From an uncultured Massilimicrobiota sp. (lineage in GTDB: Bacteria > Bacillota_I > Bacilli_A > Erysipelotrichales > Coprobacillaceae), in NCBI GenBank assembly GCA_944325245.1, contig CALUZM010000002.1, positions 5,082 through 69,081 on the forward strand: a stretch of 64,000 nt of DNA, in the 5' to 3' direction. A model generated the notes under the pieces. It saw nothing but the letters and a program-made list of their open reading frames with translations, did not search any database and was not told where the DNA came from. Below are positions 24,432 through 61,824 of the stretch, piece by piece (the first letter of the stretch is position 1; each line of letters begins with the position of its first letter). The translations under genes and the position numbers were made by a program.

Positions 24432-24473
24432 AAAAAGAAGCACATCATGTATCACATGATGGCTTCTTTTTGG
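24431..24473. terminator. Bidirectional terminator
   Basis: AAAAAAGAAGC.CATCATG-TAT-CACATGATGGCTTCTTTTT. Confidence 0.7.
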
Positions 24474-24474
24474 T

Positions 24475-24681
24475 TTAATCGATAACAGTTACATTAGTTG
24501 CTTGAGGTCCTCTATCTCCTTCAACGATATCGAATTCAACAGTTTGACCTTCCTCTAAAGTTTTAAATCCTTCAGCGTTGATTGAAGAAAAATGAACGAA
24601 AATGTCTTTTTCTTCACCTTCCATAGTAATGAAACCATAACCTTTATCAGATTTAAACCATTTGACTTTACCTGTACTCAT
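24475..24681 (-). CDS. Cold-shock protein (CspA family)
   Basis: [44 protein letters not shown]. Start at 24681 behind AAGGAGG. Confidence 0.95.
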
Positions 24682-24895
24682 TATGAAGTACCTCCTTAAG
24701 AAAATTCGCAAAAAACCAGTACTTCATTTTTAAACGACTAATAGATCTTTGGATTGAAGAATAACTAATACTTTTAAAAATACGTGCTATGTTCCTTTGC
24801 TATTTTATTATAACATAGACTTTTTTTTCGTACAAGTTCTTGTTGACTTTAGGTAGAATTAGGGTATCATTTGAATAAGAGAAAGGTGGATAATC

Positions 24896-26174: not shown

Positions 26175-27764
26175 ATGTCAGAATTTAGAGAAGAAGTTCA
26201 AAAGCGTAGAACATTTGCAATTATTTCACATCCGGATGCTGGTAAGACAACTTTAACAGAAAAATTCCTTCTTTATGGAGGAGCTATCCAGGAAGCTGGG
26301 ATGGTTAAAGGAAAAAAACAGTCAAGACATGCTGTCAGTGACTGGATGGAAATTGAAAAACAAAGAGGAATTTCAGTCACATCATCAGTATTACAGTTTA
26401 ATTATGATGGTTTTTGTATCAATATTTTGGATACGCCAGGACACCAGGACTTCTCAGAAGATACATATCGTACTTTGATGGCAGCAGATAGTGCTGTGAT
26501 GGTTATAGATGGATCTAAAGGGGTCGAAGATCAGACACGTAAGTTGTTTAAAGTATGTGCCATGCGTCATATTCCTATTTTTACATTTATTAATAAAATG
26601 GATAGAGAAGCCAAAGATCCTTATGAATTAATGGAAGAAATTGAGCGTGAATTGGGAGTTGAAACATGTGCTATCAACTGGCCAATTGGATGCGGAAAAG
26701 AATTCAAGGGTGTCTATGAAAGACAAAAAGAAGAAGTGATTCGCTTTATTCCAGTTCAGGGTGGAAAAAAAGAAGTAGACGTAGAAATACGTAGTGCTCA
26801 CGATGAATCATTAAAAGAGCTTATTGGAGATAGCTTGTATCAGCAGTTACAGGATGATATTGAATTACTGGATGGAGCTGGAGCAGAATTTGATTTAGAT
26901 CGTGTACAAAAAGGAGAACTTTCACCAGTTTGTTTTGGATCAGCACTCACAAATTTTGGTGTTGAACCTTTCCTGAAGCACTTCTTAGCTATGACTACTG
27001 CACCATTACCACGCAAAAGTAATATTGGAGAAATTGATCCTTTTTCAGAAGAATTCAGTGCTTTTGTCTTTAAAATTCAGGCCAATATGAATAAGGCGCA
27101 TCGTGACCGTATGGCTTTTATGCGTATTTGTTCTGGAAAGTTTACCAAAGGGATGGAAGTTTTCCATTATCAGGGAAACAAAAAGATTAAGTTAAATCAG
27201 TCTAAACAATTAATGGCTGAAAATCGTGAAGAAGTTGAAGAGGCTTACTCAGGAGATATTATTGGTGTTTTTGATCCTGGTATCTTTTCAATTGGAGATA
27301 CGTTATGTACAGCCAAAAATAAATTTGCTTATGAAGGTATTCCAACATTTGCGCCAGAACATTTTGCGATGATTAGAAATAAAGACACAATGAAACGTAA
27401 GCAATTTGTTAAAGGTGTAGAACAGATTGCCCAAGAAGGTGCTATTCAGATTTTTACTGAATTAGGTGGTGGAATGGAAGAAATCATTGTTGGTGTTGTG
27501 GGTATCTTACAATTTGAGGTTTTAACATATCGTTTAAAAAATGAATATAATGTAGATATCATCAGTACACCACTTCCTTATCAATTTATACGTTGGATTA
27601 AAAATGATCAGGTGGATTTCAAGAAATTGAATTTATCTTCTGATACAAAGAAAGTTCAGGATCTCAAAGGACAATATTTGCTGTTGTTTTCTAATGAATG
27701 GGGTGTACGTTGGGCAACGGATAAGAACCCTGATTTACAGTTAGCAGAATTTTCACAAAATTAA
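26175..27764 (+). CDS. prfC: Peptide chain release factor 3
   Basis: RRTFAIISHPDAGKTTLTEK, SDWME.EKQRGISVTSSV, DTPGHQDFSEDTYR, NKMDR, GVVG.LQFEV. Confidence 0.97.
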   Translation: MSEFREEVQKRRTFAIISHPDAGKTTLTEKFLLYGGAIQEAGMVKGKKQSRHAVSDWMEIEKQRGISVTSSVLQFNYDGFCINILDTPGHQDFSEDTYRTLMAADSAVMVIDGSKGVEDQTRKLFKVCAMRHIPIFTFINKMDREAKDPYELMEEIERELGVETCAINWPIGCGKEFKGVYERQKEEVIRFIPVQGGKKEVDVEIRSAHDESLKELIGDSLYQQLQDDIELLDGAGAEFDLDRVQKGELSPVCFGSALTNFGVEPFLKHFLAMTTAPLPRKSNIGEIDPFSEEFSAFVFKIQANMNKAHRDRMAFMRICSGKFTKGMEVFHYQGNKKIKLNQSKQLMAENREEVEEAYSGDIIGVFDPGIFSIGDTLCTAKNKFAYEGIPTFAPEHFAMIRNKDTMKRKQFVKGVEQIAQEGAIQIFTELGGGMEEIIVGVVGILQFEVLTYRLKNEYNVDIISTPLPYQFIRWIKNDQVDFKKLNLSSDTKKVQDLKGQYLLLFSNEWGVRWATDKNPDLQLAEFSQN

Positions 27765-27893
27765 TGATCATAAAAGAAATGAATCATCATGATTGATTTC
27801 TTTTTTTTATGATTTTTTTAGATAACATTCAAAATGATTTCTCTTTTGTAGACATTTCAAAAGTGATAGAATAATGACAAGGAGGTGTCATCT

Positions 27894-28139
27894 GTGGCTA
27901 ATGAAGGAAAACGATGTTATTGTCGTTGTATTCAGGATATGCATATGGTTGTTGGCAAAGAAGATTTGATTATTTTTCAAAAAAATCAGATTTATTCTTG
28001 CGTGATTCGTACAGGTGACACGGAAGTTACTTTTTATAAAATTTATGGTGAGGAGTTTTCATTGAGTTGTAGTGAAGCAGAATTTAAAGAATATTTTCAT
28101 ATTGTCAAACATAGTCAATCCTATGATAAATCATGCTGA
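27894..28139 (+). CDS. Hypothetical 81-aa Cys-containing protein
   Basis: GTG start at 27894 behind AAGGAGGTG; flanked by a terminator upstream (27772-27808). Confidence 0.7.
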   Translation: MANEGKRCYCRCIQDMHMVVGKEDLIIFQKNQIYSCVIRTGDTEVTFYKIYGEEFSLSCSEAEFKEYFHIVKHSQSYDKSC

Positions 28140-28183
28140 CTCTTTGTTTTTTATAAAAAATATGTTATGATGTCGTAGAAAGG

Positions 28184-30139
28184 GTGATTGTTTTGACAAA
28201 AAAGACTTTTGAAATCTCAAATATTCAATCAACTGAAGAATTAAATCATTTAAGTTTAAAGTTAAATGAGAAAGAACAGGTTTCTCATATTAAAATAGGT
28301 AAAGATAGTATTGTTTTTTATTGTCTTGATATTGATGCTTTATTAAGTTTGATTCAAAGTATCAATAAAGATCTCATTGTCAAAGAAGTCGTTGATGGTA
28401 AAAAACGTCAATATGATTTTGCACAAAAAAAAGAACGATCATATTATTTTATGTTTAAAAATATGATTACAGAAGATGATATATATGTTTTGATTGAAAG
28501 AATTGAAAAAGATGATCGTTATCAAAATGTGCGTTATGATGCTCAAAATAAACTTCTTTTATTAACATCAAGTCAACGTGATGTATTAAGTTTGTTGCGT
28601 AAAGAATTATTTAAAATCAATCCATCTATTGAAATTATTGAACATCATCGTCCTATTCGTTCACAAGATGTATTTAATGAAAAATATCTTCATACATATA
28701 TTCGTATTGGGATTTTACTGGTTGTTATTGCTTTGGCATTGGTAACATCTAGAGATCAAAGTTTTATGACACCTTTTTTATGGCTGTTAACTGTTATTTT
28801 GTTAGGAATTCCACTTTTAAGAAATGCTTGGCGTGATATCATGTCTAAAAAGATTTTGAGTGAATCTCTATTGATTTTTATTGCTATGGTCTTTGGTGTT
28901 ATTTCTGGAGCGTATATTGAAACATGTATTGCTTTAGGGATTTATGAACTTTCAACACCATTCTTAAATAAAGTTTTAGAACATTCATTACATAAGATTG
29001 ATACAGCAGTCGAAATGCCTGAAACAGGAATTCGTATCAAAGATGAAGAAGAAGAGGAAGTTTCACTTTATGATGTGGAAATTGGTGATATTTTATTAGT
29101 GCGCCCAGGAGATACAGTTTCCATACCGGGAATTGTAGAAAAAGGTGTTTCAGAGATGAGTACTTATACAAATACAAGTACTTATACCCCTGTTGTTGTC
29201 AAAAAAGGTAGTTTATTACATAGTGGTGATGTCAATGTTGGTGAAATGCCTCTTTTTGTGAAAGTGAATGAAACTTATAAAAGTTCAAATTATATGAATT
29301 TAATGAATATTGCCAGTGTTGCGCCTGTTTATGAGTCAAAAACAGAAAAATACACGAAGATTTTAGCAAAGTTTTATACACCTGTGATGGTTGTCTTAGG
29401 TTTATTTTTAGGTATTGTCTTACCAATTATTAATTTTGAAGATTATAGTTCTTTTATTCATGTTGGGGCTATTTTACTCATTATTTCTGGAGCACTTTCT
29501 AGTGATCAGGCAACGTCTTTAGGGATGTTGGCAGGTTTTGCGAAGGCATTTCAAAATGGTATTGTTGTGGAATCTTCTTTAGGTTTGGATTCAATCAATG
29601 CTGCTCAGACAATTGTTTATGATCGTTTTGATGGTGTTGAAGTGACAAATGAAGAGTTGAATCTTTTTAAGAAACTTTCGCATATGGGAAGAACTTTTGT
29701 TATTTATAATGATGGACCTGTTGCTTTGGAAGATGATCAGTATCAGATTTATAATAATTTAACAAATGAAGAAAAAATGCAAAAGATGGATGAGATGGTT
29801 TCTCCAGTTGTTTATATTGGAGATACATTCAAAGATATTGAATTATTACAAAAGAGTTATGTAGGTATTTCACGTGGAGGATTGGCTGATCCTAAAGTTG
29901 TTGAAAACAGTGATATTGTTTTGATTGATGCCAACTTAAATAGAGTTTATGAGACATTTGTCATTGCTAGAAAAATGCGAACAATAGCTATTGCCAATAA
30001 TATTTTGACGGTATCAATGAAAGTCATTATGTTGATTGTCGCATTGAGCTGGCATTTGGTTCCTTTATGGCTGATTGTCTTGATTGAAATCTTATTGAAA
30101 GCTTTTGTGATTAGAAATTCAACATGTATTTTAGAGTAG
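28184..30139 (+). CDS. Degenerate P1B (CadA/ZntA-like) P-type ATPase homologue lacking catalytic and metal-binding motifs
   Basis: CadA-like TM layout and A-domain (V.IGD..LVRPGD.V...G.V..G), but CPC reads GAL, TGE is absent, DKTGT reads DRFDG, GDGIND reads GDTFKD, and the N-domain is missing. Confidence 0.8.
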   Translation: MIVLTKKTFEISNIQSTEELNHLSLKLNEKEQVSHIKIGKDSIVFYCLDIDALLSLIQSINKDLIVKEVVDGKKRQYDFAQKKERSYYFMFKNMITEDDIYVLIERIEKDDRYQNVRYDAQNKLLLLTSSQRDVLSLLRKELFKINPSIEIIEHHRPIRSQDVFNEKYLHTYIRIGILLVVIALALVTSRDQSFMTPFLWLLTVILLGIPLLRNAWRDIMSKKILSESLLIFIAMVFGVISGAYIETCIALGIYELSTPFLNKVLEHSLHKIDTAVEMPETGIRIKDEEEEEVSLYDVEIGDILLVRPGDTVSIPGIVEKGVSEMSTYTNTSTYTPVVVKKGSLLHSGDVNVGEMPLFVKVNETYKSSNYMNLMNIASVAPVYESKTEKYTKILAKFYTPVMVVLGLFLGIVLPIINFEDYSSFIHVGAILLIISGALSSDQATSLGMLAGFAKAFQNGIVVESSLGLDSINAAQTIVYDRFDGVEVTNEELNLFKKLSHMGRTFVIYNDGPVALEDDQYQIYNNLTNEEKMQKMDEMVSPVVYIGDTFKDIELLQKSYVGISRGGLADPKVVENSDIVLIDANLNRVYETFVIARKMRTIAIANNILTVSMKVIMLIVALSWHLVPLWLIVLIEILLKAFVIRNSTCILE

Positions 30140-30170
30140 AGATATCTACTCTTTTTTTGGAGGTGAAGTT

Positions 30171-31292
30171 ATGAAAATTCTTATTGCACCAGATTCTTTT
30201 AAAGAAAGCATGAGCGCTTTAGAAGCAAGTTTACAAATAGAAGAAGCCATTCATCATTATGATGCAACCATATCAACAAAATGTATTCCTTTGGCCGATG
30301 GTGGTGAAGGGACACTGGATACTTTGATATCTTCCATGGGTGGAAGGATTGAAGAATTTGAGGTAACTGATGTGAGATTTCGTAAAAGAAAAGTTCCAAT
30401 AGGAATTGTTAAGGATACAGCAATTATTGAATGTGCTAAAGTTTGTGGATTAGAATTGTTGAATGATAATGAAAAAGATCCAGCACAGACAACAACTTAT
30501 GGTCTAGGGGAACTGATTTTAAAAGCTTTAGACCTTGCTGTATCACGTATTTTGATTTGCCTAGGTGGAAGTGCCACAAATGATGGTGGTATAGGGATGT
30601 TATCAGCATTAGGTGTTTCTTTTTTAGATGAGCATCAGCAAAGTGTAACTCTGACAATGGCAGGACTGCAGGATTTAAAAATGATTGACTGGTCTCATTT
30701 GGATCAACGATTAAAGCATGTTCATTTGATTGGTGTCTGTGATGTCAGCAATCCACTTTGTGGGCAGCAAGGAGCTACTTATGTTTATGGACGACAAAAA
30801 GGTCTTCAAAAAGAGGATTGTCAGCAAGTTGATCAAAATATGCATCATTATGCTAAACTTGTAGAAGAACATTTTGGTAGGGCTTTTCATCATCAAGCAG
30901 GAGCAGGCGCGGCTGGTGGACTAGGTTTTGCCTTATTAATATGCCATGGTGTTCTTCAGCGTGGCTTTGATGTTGTCAGTCAAATGACAGATTTAGAAAA
31001 AGCTATTTTGGAATGCGACTGCGTAATTGTTGGAGAAGGTAAAATGGATTATCAGACACAATATGGTAAGACACCTTATGGTGTTTTGTTGTTGGCTCAA
31101 AAATATCACAAGAAGGTTTATGCTTTTGCTGGGAAAGTTGAGGATCGTGATGTTTTAAAAAAATTGGGATTTCAAAATGTCTGGGCGATTACACCACCTT
31201 CAATGGAACTTTCTCAAGCTTTAAAAGAAGGAAAAGAAAATATCAAAAAATGTGTTTTCAACCATATGGAGGATATGATTCATGGCATATAA
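30171..31292 (+). CDS. glxK: Glycerate kinase (GlxK/GarK family)
   Basis: KILIAPDSFKESMSA, PLADGGEGT, TTYGLGELI, GGSATNDGG, GAGAAGGLG, GEG.MD.QT.YGK. Confidence 0.9.
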   Translation: MKILIAPDSFKESMSALEASLQIEEAIHHYDATISTKCIPLADGGEGTLDTLISSMGGRIEEFEVTDVRFRKRKVPIGIVKDTAIIECAKVCGLELLNDNEKDPAQTTTYGLGELILKALDLAVSRILICLGGSATNDGGIGMLSALGVSFLDEHQQSVTLTMAGLQDLKMIDWSHLDQRLKHVHLIGVCDVSNPLCGQQGATYVYGRQKGLQKEDCQQVDQNMHHYAKLVEEHFGRAFHHQAGAGAAGGLGFALLICHGVLQRGFDVVSQMTDLEKAILECDCVIVGEGKMDYQTQYGKTPYGVLLLAQKYHKKVYAFAGKVEDRDVLKKLGFQNVWAITPPSMELSQALKEGKENIKKCVFNHMEDMIHGI

Positions 31293-32121
31293 AGTAGACA
31301 ATGAGACAACGTTAATGACTTTTTTGTTGGAGAAAACTTCTTATAAACGTGCTGATATTAAAAACTTTTTAAAATATGAACGTATTTTTGTTGATGGTCA
31401 TATTCAGACGCATTACGCATATCCTTTAAAGAAGGGACAAAGCGTTGAGATTGGCAAGAAAAAAGAAAGTTTACCTTTTCCAATTCTTTATGAAGATAAA
31501 GAATTGATTGTCATTGATAAACCATGTGGACTTTTAAGTGAAGCAACAGCCAATGAAAAACAGAAAACAGCTTTTGCGATTGTTAAAAATTATTTATCTT
31601 TAAAAAAGGAAAATACTTTTTTAGTGCATCGTTTGGATCAATATACATCAGGTGTATTGATGTTTGTCAAATCAAAAAAGCTTTATGAAATACTGACAAG
31701 TGATTGGAATCATTATGTTAAGACGCGTGGCTATATAGCTGTTGTTGAAGGAAGGATGACCAAAAAGAAGGGAACAATTGAAAATTATCTAGCTGAATCT
31801 AAAACACAGACCGTTTATATCACCAGTAAGCAAAAAGGCAAAAAGGCCATTACACATTATCAGGTCATTGCTTCTACACCACAATATAGTCTTTTAAAAA
31901 TTAATTTAGATACAGGTCGTAAAAATCAGATTCGTGTTCATCTGTCTTCATTACATCATCCTATTGTGGGAGATGATAAATATCATGCCACAACAAATCC
32001 TTTAAAACGACTAGGGTTACATGCCAATGAATTGATGTTTATTCATCCATTAACAAAAAGACAAATGCGTTTTGTATCACAAACGCCACAATCATTTGAA
32101 AAACTATTTAAAAATCATTGA
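31282..32121 (+). CDS. RluA/RluD family pseudouridine synthase
   Basis: VIDKPCGLL, VHRLDQYTSGV, TGRKNQIRVHL, HPIVGD.KY, LHA..L.F.HP. Confidence 0.92.
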   Translation: MAYKVDNETTLMTFLLEKTSYKRADIKNFLKYERIFVDGHIQTHYAYPLKKGQSVEIGKKKESLPFPILYEDKELIVIDKPCGLLSEATANEKQKTAFAIVKNYLSLKKENTFLVHRLDQYTSGVLMFVKSKKLYEILTSDWNHYVKTRGYIAVVEGRMTKKKGTIENYLAESKTQTVYITSKQKGKKAITHYQVIASTPQYSLLKINLDTGRKNQIRVHLSSLHHPIVGDDKYHATTNPLKRLGLHANELMFIHPLTKRQMRFVSQTPQSFEKLFKNH

Positions 32122-59334: not shown

Positions 59335-61824
59335 ATGAAACAAAAATATGATGTTATGGGTATGACATGTAGTGCATGCAGTGCCCATGTAGATAAAGCA
59401 GTCAGGCATCTTGATGGTGTCAAAGATGTTAACGTCAATTTACTAAGTAATAGTATGGTTGTTGATTATGATGAAAAAATGGTTGGGCCTGAAGCCATAG
59501 AAAAGGCTGTTGAAGATGCTGGATATAAAGCATCTTTAGAACAAGAAACCATTCAGGCAAAAAAACAGGAAGAAACTGTTGATCATCAAAAACGATCATT
59601 GATTTTATCATTTGTCTTTTTGATTCCATTATTTTATATTTCAATGGGACATATGATGGGTGCGCCATTACCTGCCTTTTTAACGGGTGAAGAGAATATG
59701 ATGGTCTTTGCTTTAACCCAGCTCTTTTTAACTTTACCTGTCATGTATATAAATCGTGGATATTTTCAAAGAGGCTTTAAATCTTTGTGGCATCGCAGTC
59801 CCAATATGGATACGTTAATCGCCATGGGGTCAACAGCAGCTGCAGTTTATAGTATCTATGCTATTTTTATGATGGGATATTGTCTTGGCCATGGACAAAT
59901 GCAAGAAGCCCATCGATATATGATGCAATTGTATTTTGAGTCAGCTGCTATGATTTTAACTTTAATATCTTTAGGAAAATATTTAGAATCACGTTCTAAA
60001 AAGAAAACGACGGAAGCTATTGAAAAACTGATTGGTCTGATGCCTTCATCAGCGACAGTCTTAAAAGATGGGCAGGAAGTGAGTATGCCTATTGAAAAAG
60101 TCCAGGTAGGAGATATTGTCATTGTCAAATCAGGACAAAGTATTCCTCTTGATGGAACGATTGTTAAGGGGCAGACTTCTATTGATGAATCTATGATTAC
60201 TGGAGAGAGTTTACCAGTGGATAAAACTGTCAATGATCAGGTTATTGGAGCGACGATGAATATTGAAGGTTATATTCAAGTTCAAGTGACACGTATGAGC
60301 CAGGAAGCCACATTATCACAGATTATTGAACTGGTAGAGGAAGCAAGTTCATCAAAGGCACCTATCGCCAAACTGGCTGATCAGATTAGTGGTGTTTTTG
60401 TTCCTATTGTGATGACAATTTCTTTAGTGACCTTTATTTTGTGGTTAACTTTAGGACAACAGACATTCCATTTTGCCTTAACATGCGCCATAGCAGTTTT
60501 GGTTATTTCATGTCCATGTGCTTTGGGATTAGCCACACCTACTGCTATTATGGTAGGAACAGGAAAAGGAGCTCAATTGGGTATTCTGATTAAATCAGCT
60601 GAAAATCTAGAATTGTTATCCAAAGCAAAAAGTATTGTTTTGGATAAGACAGGGACTATCACAATAGGAAAACCACAGGTCACAGAAGTTTATCCGGTTG
60701 ATATGAGTGAAGATGAATTATTAAGCTTAGCTGCGACAATCGAAAACTCATCGCAACATCCTTTGGCGAAAGCTGTTGTGGATTATGCGCAATCAAAAAA
60801 TATGGAAATGAAGGATTTAGAGTCTTTTGAGATGTTATCTGGAAAAGGTCTTGTTGGTTTCATTGATGGAAATCAGATTCTTTCAGGAAATCAGCGTTTA
60901 ATGGCAGAATATGATATCGATTTATCACCAGTGCAACAAAAAGCACAGGCATTAGCGGCACAAGGAAAAACACCTTTATATTATGCATATGCAAAGCGTG
61001 TTATTGGTCTGATTGTTGTGAGTGATGTTTTAAAAGAAACAAGTCAAAGCGCTATTGAACAATTGAAGAATATGGGATTATCTATCTATATGTTAACTGG
61101 TGATAATCAACTCACAGCACAGCATATTGGAGAGCAGCTAGGTATTCAGGTGATTGCGGAAGTTTTACCACAAGATAAGGAAAAACATATTCGTCAATTG
61201 CAAACGCAAGGTGAGCGTGTTATTATGGTTGGAGATGGTATTAATGATGCCCCTGCATTAATGCGAGCTGATGTGGGAATTGCGATGACATCGGGAACTG
61301 ATATTGCGATGGATTCTGCAGATATTGTGTTGATGAAAAATGATCTACAGGATGTTGTCAATGCCATTGAATTAAGTCATGCTGTTTTAAAGAATATTAA
61401 AGAAAACTTATTTTGGGCTTTCTTCTATAATGTAATTGGTATTCCTATTGCTGCAGGTGTCTTCTATCCTCTTTTTGGATGGTTATTAGATCCAATGTTT
61501 GGAGCAGCAGCTATGAGCTTAAGTTCTGTCTTTGTTGTCAGCAATGCTTTAAGATTAAGATTTTTTAAACCAAAACATGCTTATCATCAAATAGAAAAGA
61601 AACAGGAGGAAAAGAAAATGGAAAAAACAATGAATATTGAAGGTATGATGTGTCAAAATTGTCAAAAACATGTGGACAAAGCTTTAAATAGTATTGATGG
61701 TGTAGAAGCAACAGTTGATTTAAAAAATAACTGTGCTTACTTGAAATTAAGTCATGATGTTGATGAAAGCATCTTAGTGAAAGCGGTCGAAGATGCTGGA
61801 TATACTGTTAAAGGATTTGAATAA
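59335..61824 (+). CDS. copA: Copper-translocating P1B-type ATPase with N- and C-terminal HMA domains
   Basis: GMTCSAC, TGES, CPCALGLATP, DKTGT, HP, GDGINDAPA, YN..., MSLSS, C-terminal GMMCQNC. Confidence 0.97.
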   Translation: MKQKYDVMGMTCSACSAHVDKAVRHLDGVKDVNVNLLSNSMVVDYDEKMVGPEAIEKAVEDAGYKASLEQETIQAKKQEETVDHQKRSLILSFVFLIPLFYISMGHMMGAPLPAFLTGEENMMVFALTQLFLTLPVMYINRGYFQRGFKSLWHRSPNMDTLIAMGSTAAAVYSIYAIFMMGYCLGHGQMQEAHRYMMQLYFESAAMILTLISLGKYLESRSKKKTTEAIEKLIGLMPSSATVLKDGQEVSMPIEKVQVGDIVIVKSGQSIPLDGTIVKGQTSIDESMITGESLPVDKTVNDQVIGATMNIEGYIQVQVTRMSQEATLSQIIELVEEASSSKAPIAKLADQISGVFVPIVMTISLVTFILWLTLGQQTFHFALTCAIAVLVISCPCALGLATPTAIMVGTGKGAQLGILIKSAENLELLSKAKSIVLDKTGTITIGKPQVTEVYPVDMSEDELLSLAATIENSSQHPLAKAVVDYAQSKNMEMKDLESFEMLSGKGLVGFIDGNQILSGNQRLMAEYDIDLSPVQQKAQALAAQGKTPLYYAYAKRVIGLIVVSDVLKETSQSAIEQLKNMGLSIYMLTGDNQLTAQHIGEQLGIQVIAEVLPQDKEKHIRQLQTQGERVIMVGDGINDAPALMRADVGIAMTSGTDIAMDSADIVLMKNDLQDVVNAIELSHAVLKNIKENLFWAFFYNVIGIPIAAGVFYPLFGWLLDPMFGAAAMSLSSVFVVSNALRLRFFKPKHAYHQIEKKQEEKKMEKTMNIEGMMCQNCQKHVDKALNSIDGVEATVDLKNNCAYLKLSHDVDESILVKAVEDAGYTVKGFE

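Follow-up and report, generated by a model that had tools for sequence, protein, structure and literature searches.

The window analysed here is a 64,000-nucleotide (nt) stretch of contig CALUZM010000002.1 (assembly GCA_944325245.1, positions 5,082 to 69,081 of the forward strand) from an uncultured Massilimicrobiota sp., and it carries a gene for a homologue of the heavy-metal P1B-type ATPases, here called the pump homologue, that has no ATP-binding (N) domain. Its open reading frame (ORF) spans 651 codons without interruption (28184..30139, +). The original prediction, a reading of the sequence alone, took the frame from position 28184, where the mechanically assigned start is a GTG, and residue numbers below still count from that codon. 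Translation probably begins at TTG 28193 instead, because this codon is preceded by the ribosome-binding site GAAAGGG and is kept in orthologues; the coding sequence, identified by homology, alignment and a structural model, would then occupy 28193..30139 (+) and encode 648 residues. An uninterrupted frame with a promoter element and a terminator of its own had been predicted, and both signals were found. An extended -10-like element, TGTTATGAT (28163..28171, +), sits in the 54-nt spacer between the pump gene and a small gene upstream and is kept in orthologues, with the form ATATG(T/A/G)TATGATG occurring in the same spacer of loci L001, L002, L003, L012, L015, L019, L021 and L074, whose pump proteins are 61-85% identical. 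A terminator-like hairpin followed by a T-run (30133..30152, +) overlaps the stop codon and is the sole such site in 27600-30400.

Motifs of the ATP cycle are replaced throughout the family

Motifs were counted in an alignment of the pump homologue and 79 relatives, 80 members in all, with canonical CadA-like pumps. The replacements of CPC, TGES, DKTGT, TGD, GDGIND and CxxC that had been read from the single sequence are all real and fall at the positions first assigned to them, and the losses are conserved in 80 of 80 members. In transmembrane helix M4 the CPC metal site has become G436-A437-L438, with S435-G-A-L-S-S-D-Q442 standing where SCPCAL was; position 437 is Ala in 45, Ser in 19, Thr in nine and Gly in four of the 80, and no Pro was counted. 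The C-terminal half of M4, which links to the phosphorylation (P) domain, is conserved (L449, G451, A455, F456, G459 and I460), and the helix is still broken at 435-439 in the structural model described below. TGE(S) of the actuator (A) domain reads T331-S332-T333 (loop N330-T-S-T333), with no in-register Glu in any member counted or shown: the position is filled by Thr, Ser, Val or Gln in most members and by Lys, Ser or Asn in the distant members shown.

The phosphorylation motif DKTGT is reduced to D480-R-F-D-G (29621-29635). Its Asp is kept in 80 of 80 members, while Lys is replaced by Arg, Thr by Phe or Ile, Gly by Asp and the final Thr by Gly; the residue two places after the Asp (D+2) is Phe in 74 and Ile in six of the 80, Thr being found only in the most distant member, P0154. 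TGD has become N508-D509-G510, and GDGIND has become G546-D-T-F-K-D551, the family form being G-D-(T/S)-x-K-D, in which both Asp are invariant and Asn has given way to Lys. The metal-binding CxxC reads S16-x-(D/E)-E19 in the first HMA-like domain and T96-E-D-D99 in the second (D99 in 78 of 80). Residues N605 and K613 of M5 are retained in most members, and the place of the M6 Asp (canonical ADTG) is taken by E634 in several of the members shown and by Tyr in the distant clade.

The predicted absence of the N domain is likewise borne out. Only 50 residues separate D480 from K531, and a P-domain profile built from the family alone, which recovered P-type ATPase P domains from the PDB, matched the CopB P/N fragment 2iye in two pieces, with 108 residues skipped against 12 family positions. 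BLASTP against the CopA of the same window (59335..61824) aligned the pump homologue from M1 to the phosphorylation site and again from the GDGxND region, with nothing between, and a tblastn search of the window with six canonical N domains found CopA's own N domain only and no stand-alone N-domain gene. A canonical ATP cycle would be impossible for such a protein alone, because there is no N domain to bind ATP, no TGES glutamate to catalyse dephosphorylation, and no CPC or M4 proline to form a soft-metal site. Because five defining features of a functional P-type ATPase are missing, the protein should not be classed among the heavy-metal-translocating ATPases.

The P1B fold is kept

Pfam recognizes in the pump homologue E1-E2_ATPase (PF00122, the A domain) alone, at residues 281-433 (E=5.7e-15), with no Hydrolase/HAD and no HMA match even at E<=1; the window's CopA, by contrast, matches E1-E2_ATPase, Hydrolase and HMA strongly. 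The nearest NCBIfam models are those of heavy-metal P1B ATPases, yet the scores reach only about one third of the cut-offs (TIGR01525, 126.7 bits, E=1.2e-36, cut-off 346.25; TIGR01512, 126.3 bits, cut-off 313.5). In an AlphaFold2 model made from a 62-sequence alignment (mean predicted local distance difference test score, pLDDT, 81.6) the beta-alpha-beta-beta-alpha-beta unit occurs twice; eight long helices, a beta-rich A domain and an alpha/beta P domain that is compact and has no inserted domain complete the structure. The top Foldseek matches of this model, at probability 1.00, were ZntA (4umw/4umv), ATP7B and CopA (4bbj and 7r0g), and ZntA was also the best profile match in the PDB. P1B homology and the overall fold, with A and P domains and an eight-helix transmembrane topology, are thus retained.

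The domains follow one another in the canonical order on the plus strand. The first HMA-like domain (residues 5-76, 28196..28411), placed by the model, aligns to the first HMA domain of P0091, P0092 and P0120 and is modelled with strand 7-12, helix 17-29, strands 33-38 and 42-47, helix 50-60 and strand 65-70. The second (residues 85-155, 28436..28648), placed by alignment and model, has strand 85-92, helix 98-109, strands 113-119 and 124-129, helix 134-145 and strand 150-154. Both have the ferredoxin-like HMA fold but lack CxxC and stay below the Pfam HMA threshold. Helices MA, MB, M1 and M2 (residues 160-276, 28661..29011) correspond to model helices 160-191, 196-220, 227-240 and 244-276 and align with MA-M2 of ZntA. 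They are followed by the A domain (residues 277-385, 29012..29338; PF00122 and column counts), M3-M4 (residues 386-457, 29339..29554; alignment and model), the P domain without an N-domain insertion (residues 458-585, 29555..29938), marked by the D480 motif, and M5-M6 (residues 586-647, 29939..30124; alignment).

A lineage-restricted family under purifying selection

Homology searches returned about 85 full-length relatives of 645-673 residues at 100% to 38% identity and then, after a gap, ordinary P1B pumps at 22-26%. A scan of a 1.84-billion representative protein library added deeper members at 33%, 30% and 27% identity (640-652 residues), which match in one stretch and are therefore all without an N domain. 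Each of 100 bootstraps of a neighbour-joining tree recovered the family as monophyletic, on a long stem within the CadA/ZntA-like sequences; the pump homologue descends from CadA/ZntA-like (P1B-2-like) pumps and has kept their architecture. The members that carry a name belong to Massilimicrobiota, Allocoprobacillus, Coprobacillus and Candidatus Stoquefichus. The two genera looked up, Massilimicrobiota and Candidatus Stoquefichus, are classified in the Erysipelotrichaceae, and judging from its named members the family is confined to the Erysipelotrichaceae. The window itself has matches in chicken-gut and mouse-gut metagenomes, its closest named relatives being Massilimicrobiota, and members are frequent among the contigs recovered from human, mouse and chicken gut metagenomes. 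In the source records they are labelled 'hypothetical protein', 'P-type ATPase A domain...', 'P-type ATPase' or 'Cation transport ATPase'.

Against three Massilimicrobiota orthologues, the ratio of nonsynonymous to synonymous substitution rates (dN/dS) of the pump homologue was approximately 0.11-0.12, at a dS of about 0.9. This is comparable to the values of neighbouring genes, namely the M29 aminopeptidase gene pepS (0.10-0.11), rluA (0.12-0.16) and the glycerate kinase gene glxK (0.07-0.14), and the protein is more similar to its Massilimicrobiota orthologues (83-85% identity) than are the products of rluA (76-78%) and glxK (69-71%). Selection is purifying throughout: dN/dS is 0.04-0.07 in the P domain, 0.10-0.12 in the HMA-like domains (together at a dN of 0.07-0.09) and 0.19-0.21 in the A domain, the least constrained of the soluble domains. 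The ORF is intact in the window and in 80 of 90 recovered loci, and split in ten; we read the split ORFs as assembly errors because the seven of the ten whose contig names give a coverage stand at 0.9-4x.

Simple decay had been doubted from the first, and the wider comparison agrees, since every relative down to 27% identity has the same degenerate form in the same chromosomal slot. The combination that the original prediction had named as refuting it, a canonical CadA at this locus in close relatives together with neutral divergence of the present copy, did not appear.

Constraint has moved from the membrane ion site to the P domain

The P domain is by far the most conserved part of the family: its column entropy averages 0.81, compared with 1.3-1.7 in the other regions, and 41% of its positions reach a conservation of 90% or more. 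When the same alignment columns were compared in the family and in canonical CadA-like pumps of similar diversity, the pattern of constraint proved to differ. In the canonical pumps the ion-site helices M4 and M6 are the most conserved, at 0.65x and 0.64x of the mean entropy, whereas in the family conservation is lowest in M6 (1.30x), average in M4 (0.94x) and highest in the P domain (0.77-0.79x); MA-MB stand at 1.05x in the family and at 1.57x in the canonical pumps. Constraint has thus left the membrane ion site (M4/M6) for the P domain and, secondarily, the HMA-like domains.

Within the P domain, D480, E491, D509, K531, D547, D551 and R564-G565 are invariant; the segment Y-I-G-D547-x-x-K550-D551 is invariant or nearly so, and R564-G-G is also conserved. 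D480, K531, D547 and D551, kept even in the members at 27-33% identity, correspond to the nucleophile, the motif III Lys and the motif IV Asp pair of the haloacid dehalogenase (HAD) superfamily, which in SERCA are D351, K684, D703 and D707. In P-type ATPases and HAD enzymes such a pocket binds Mg2+ and a phosphoryl group. The HAD core is therefore represented by its motif I nucleophile, its motif III Lys and its motif IV acidic pair, while the D+2 residue is not of the HAD type and motif II has Asn508 in nearly all members and Ser in P0154, the member at 27% identity. Conserved charges have been gained around the site, namely D483 (79 of 80, His in P0154), D509, K550 and R564. An invariant HAD core of this kind is more typical of a site still in use than of a dead one, although it is no proof of chemistry.

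A conserved gene slot and a small four-cysteine protein

Neighbouring genes in the 90 loci were classified by BLASTP. The ancestral order is M29 peptidase - prfC - [small gene] - pump homologue - RluA-family gene - infC - rpmI - rplT, and apart from the small gene the same slot is occupied even for the member at 27% identity; a slot fixed across the family implies long vertical inheritance at one locus. The small gene and the RluA-family gene stay with the pump homologue where the outer flanks change (L003, L068). Nothing favours a horizontal or mobile origin: the GC content of the 28001-30000 bin (0.30) is typical of the window (0.29-0.36), and the slot is a fixed syntenic one among housekeeping genes.

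The small gene (27894..28139, +), which the original prediction overlooked, starts at GTG 27894 after the ribosome-binding site AGGAGG and encodes 81 residues beginning MANEGKRCYCRC. Upstream lies an extended -10-like element, GTGATAGAAT (27863..27872, +), recognized by its match to the consensus and by its conservation; an element of the type TGnTA(G/A/T)AAT is found at the same distance before the small gene in L001-L004, L015, L016 and L019-L021. The protein has an invariant N-terminus, ANxGKR, and four invariant cysteines (a CxC at 9/11, C35 and C58), and its dN/dS is 0.16-0.21. No match to it was found in Pfam, NCBIfam or PADLOC, and AlphaFold2 gives a poor model of it (pLDDT 53). There are only 22 clusters of homologues, found solely with a pump-like gene and in the same lineage, and several of them agree with pump clusters in the length of their longest contig. 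The small gene lies directly 5' of the pump gene in 55 of the 62 loci in which the upstream side is covered, usually at about 50-70 nt; in the window no terminator separates the two. On this evidence the four-cysteine protein is a candidate partner of the pump homologue, or a candidate metal- or redox-binding protein.

Regulatory signals at the locus were also sought. A perfect inverted repeat around the ribosome-binding site of the small gene, ATGACA-AGGAGG-TGTCAT (27877-27894), was considered as an operator and set aside, as its left arm is not conserved and the repeat is probably due to chance. Neither a conserved operator nor a metal-responsive regulator of the ArsR/CadC type adjoins the pump homologue, and upstream of it Rfam gave no riboswitch or leader, its matches being a downstream L20 leader and two sub-threshold ones. 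A link to anti-phage defence was dismissed, PADLOC matching neither the pump homologue nor the small protein.

On the 3' side, an RluA-family pseudouridine synthase gene (31282..32121, +; TIGR00005, 193.5 bits) comes next in 71 of 73 loci; the commonest distance from the stop codon of the pump gene is 45 nt, and in L009 the two genes overlap. In the window a glycerate kinase gene (30171-31292) is inserted between the two. The pairing may reflect a functional operon or mere conserved gene order. No substrate-related gene was seen in the neighbourhood of the loci examined.

Several further observations concern the surroundings. A GNAT acetyltransferase gene (175-178 residues) lies directly 5' of the pump-like gene in L005 (5326-5853), L007 (5484-6020), L026 and L027, where it either replaces the small gene or stands between it and the pump-like gene. 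The L20 leader (RF00558, 32166-32286, +) scores 64 bits, above the gathering score, and precedes infC-rpmI-rplT, which is the expected arrangement in Bacillota. On the minus strand, 24434-24733 matches the cspA thermoregulator below threshold (RF01766, 42.8 bits; gathering score 78); L007 and L009 carry a cold-shock protein gene on the minus strand 5' of the M29 peptidase gene, and a csp gene with its 5' untranslated region may sit at 24434-24733 of the window. The window's CopA (59335-61824, +) has a second HMA/CopZ-like domain with MxCxxC at its C-terminus (residues ~765-825) besides the N-terminal one; a C-terminal HMA domain is unusual for bacterial CopA.

A proposed role as switch, sensor or scaffold in the membrane

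Taken together, these patterns indicate that the pump homologue is very probably a selected derivative of a Zn/Cd-type P1B pump that is unable to run the ATP cycle by itself. The original prediction thus stands in describing a maintained gene that does not encode a canonical pump, the N domain, the TGES Glu and CPC being absent. Its description of the protein as a catalytically dismantled pseudoenzyme is not established, given that the P domain is the most constrained region and that its HAD-core residues are invariant; the status of a dead enzyme is unproven.

Our proposal, for which the case is finely balanced, is that the protein regulates, senses or serves as a scaffold, chiefly through its cytoplasmic head. 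It includes a more tentative suggestion, that phosphoryl groups are still bound in, or transferred by, the Asp pocket. The membrane domain would serve mainly as an anchor and transmission element, with the cytoplasmic head as the working part. Because the HAD-core residues are kept and conserved charges have been gained around them, the pocket formed by Asp480, Lys531, Asp547 and Asp551 may still be occupied, either by a small phosphorylated ligand or through phosphorylation of Asp480 from a non-ATP donor such as acetyl phosphate or inorganic phosphate (Pi); classical P-type ATPases accept acetyl phosphate or Pi without use of the N domain. With the TGES glutamate gone, such a phosphorylated or occupied state would persist for a long time. 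On this view the protein would no longer be a transporter; it would work, probably together with the four-cysteine protein, as a switch, sensor or scaffold anchored in the membrane. In its most specific form, a P-type module working without ATP would still form or bind a state of the aspartyl-phosphate type by means of a non-ATP donor or ligand and serve as a receiver-like membrane switch, possibly reading the metal or redox state of the four-cysteine protein; we regard this version as rather unlikely. If true, it would be the first bacterial 'P-type module without ATP' and a new signalling use of the P-type ATPase fold.

Several points weigh against the proposal. The mechanism rests on conservation patterns, and no RNA run was found to contain the sequence. 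With dS near 0.9-1, close to saturation, the dN/dS ratios are approximate, and the 90 loci are not independent, a few species having contributed many of them. The small gene is absent in L007, L008, L009, L010, L022, L026 and L029, so its product is not an obligatory partner. A Thr is missing both at D+2 of motif I, where Phe or Ile stands nearly everywhere, and at motif II, which is mostly Asn. K550, an Asn in real pumps, or R564 might form a salt bridge with D480 or D547, which would leave the pocket structurally conserved and chemically dead. Finally, with N605 and K613 of M5 mostly kept, some ion-related role in the membrane is possible.

An enzymatic alternative keeps the pocket active in another way: loss of the N domain would have uncovered a membrane-anchored phosphatase or phosphotransferase of the HAD type, acting on a large or membrane-bound phospho-substrate, much as capless HAD phosphatases act on proteins and nucleic acids. 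The invariance of Asp480, Lys531, Asp547 and Asp551 and the strong constraint on the P domain accord with such a new enzyme, as does the polar residue at motif II (Asn in most members, Ser in the one at 27% identity), and D483, at D+3, could act as general acid/base. The canonical HAD general acid/base at D+2 is missing, however, being Phe or Ile; Pfam reports no Hydrolase/HAD match at E<=1, the neighbourhood holds no substrate-related gene, and the retention of the A domain, two HMA-like domains and eight transmembrane helices would go unexplained. We consider this reading unlikely.

The protein might instead be a passive channel or uniporter for a hard cation (Mg2+, Mn2+ or Ca2+), with oxygen ligands in place of cysteines and gating by the cytoplasmic head. 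All eight transmembrane helices are kept, the break in M4 is still predicted, the stretch that replaces SCPCAL is rich in Ser, Asp and Gln, the M5 residues N605 and K613 mostly persist, and conserved acidic residues have taken the place of the HMA-loop cysteines. The distribution of constraint nevertheless argues against transport: M6 is the least conserved region and M5 has above-average entropy, whereas M4 and M6 are the most conserved in real pumps. The M4 proline, which is reported to be strongly conserved in P-type ATPases, occurs in none of the members counted, and M4-M6 contain no invariant acidic residue, the M6 Asp position being Glu in several members and Tyr in the distant clade. 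The passive carrier that the original prediction had allowed for is thus disfavoured, because M6 is the least conserved region, and we hold it quite unlikely.

A role as non-catalytic subunit or regulator of a canonical pump, whether the CopA at 59335..61824 or a CadA elsewhere in the genome, is very unlikely. The protein would pair with such a pump via its membrane domain and modulate it or hand metal to it, with the four-cysteine protein as chaperone. Such a role would fit the greater relative conservation of MA-MB, the chaperone-docking platform in P1B pumps, than in canonical pumps (1.05x against 1.57x), the co-encoded Cys-rich small partner, and the presence of a canonical CopA in the same window. 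Linkage to a pump gene was nevertheless found in none of the 90 loci, CopA lies 29 kb away among unrelated genes, and we know of no heteromeric P1B pump; the partnership with another pump suggested earlier has no evidence behind it. Last, a decaying pseudogene or an artefact of annotation or assembly, to which the loss of all catalytic signatures and the ten split ORFs might point, is practically excluded by the size of the family, an intact ORF of 640-673 residues throughout 27-100% identity, a dN/dS of 0.11-0.12 overall and 0.04-0.21 in every region, better conservation than the neighbouring glxK and rluA, a conserved promoter element, ribosome-binding site and TTG start, and the 0.9-4x coverage of seven of the ten split loci.

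Comparison with known systems

With the ZntA/CadA P1B-2 ATPases (4umv/4umw, 7qbz) the family shares ancestry, nesting as it does in CadA-like sequences, and fold, including N-terminal HMA-type domains, eight transmembrane helices (MA, MB, M1-M6), the A domain and the Rossmann core of the P domain; the M5 Asn and Lys are mostly kept as well. Unlike these pumps, it has no N domain, TGES, CPC with its proline, or CxxC, and DKTGT is reduced to its Asp; its scores against the profile hidden Markov models are about one third of the cut-offs, its constraint lies on the P domain and not on M4/M6, and no metal-responsive regulator adjoins it.

One further N-domain deletion came to light among the CadA homologues. 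P0266, a metagenomic protein of 591 residues (locus L011, 4533-6308), likewise has the N domain deleted and DKTGT destroyed (EKNST), and its GDGIND reads GVGLND. In contrast to the family, it keeps CPC, the HMA CxxC and the M6 motif ADAG, lies behind an ArsR/HTH_5 regulator gene (L011, 4144-4512) as in a normal cadCA operon, and branches among canonical pumps, the family and P0266 being monophyletic in only one of 100 bootstraps. It is the only such cluster representative among the matches listed and looks like a separate, possibly recent, N-domain deletion. Against it, the long-maintained Erysipelotrichaceae family stands out.

The P4-ATPase-like domains of alveolate and stramenopile guanylate cyclases, in some of which DKTGT is degenerate or missing, are also P-type modules kept under selection despite an altered phosphorylation motif, with a presumed regulatory or sensing role (PMC13466520). 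They differ in being eukaryotic, of the P4 lipid-flippase type and fused to a cyclase, and in retaining the N domain, which in Cryptosporidium is only partly truncated (PMC13466520). The pump homologue, by comparison, is bacterial, stand-alone and derived from a metal pump, and its whole N domain is gone. Apart from these cyclases we found no precedent for a P-type module that is maintained although its phosphorylation motif has degenerated. A literature search found no description of a bacterial P-type ATPase family without an N domain, a weak negative given that most subscription journals were outside its coverage.

Two other groups offer looser parallels. UhpC of E. coli and Snf3/Rgt2 of yeast are transporter homologues that have turned to signalling with the membrane fold kept; they belong to the major facilitator superfamily and have known signalling partners, and only the concept is held in common. 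Capless (C0) HAD phosphatases resemble the P domain in their Rossmann-like core, nucleophile Asp, Lys and two Asp, and in having no large insertion over the active site. They are soluble proteins with the motif DxDx(T/V), in which Asp stands at D+2; the pump homologue differs in having D-R-F-D-G and in embedding the core in a full P-type ATPase scaffold.

Significance

To our knowledge, all characterized P-type ATPases depend on the N domain, DKTGT and TGES. That the rest of the machine is under purifying selection down to 27% identity indicates that the P-type scaffold is useful beyond ATP-driven pumping. The family offers a natural 'minimal' system in which the roles of the P domain, the A domain and the M4 linkage could be studied without nucleotide, together with aspartyl-phosphate chemistry from other donors. 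Labels such as 'Cation transport ATPase' and 'P-type ATPase' would overstate the metal-resistance repertoire of gut Erysipelotrichaceae, and the family merits a model and a name of its own. Its members seem to belong to the conserved gene complement of the lineage, and their function may matter for its physiology.

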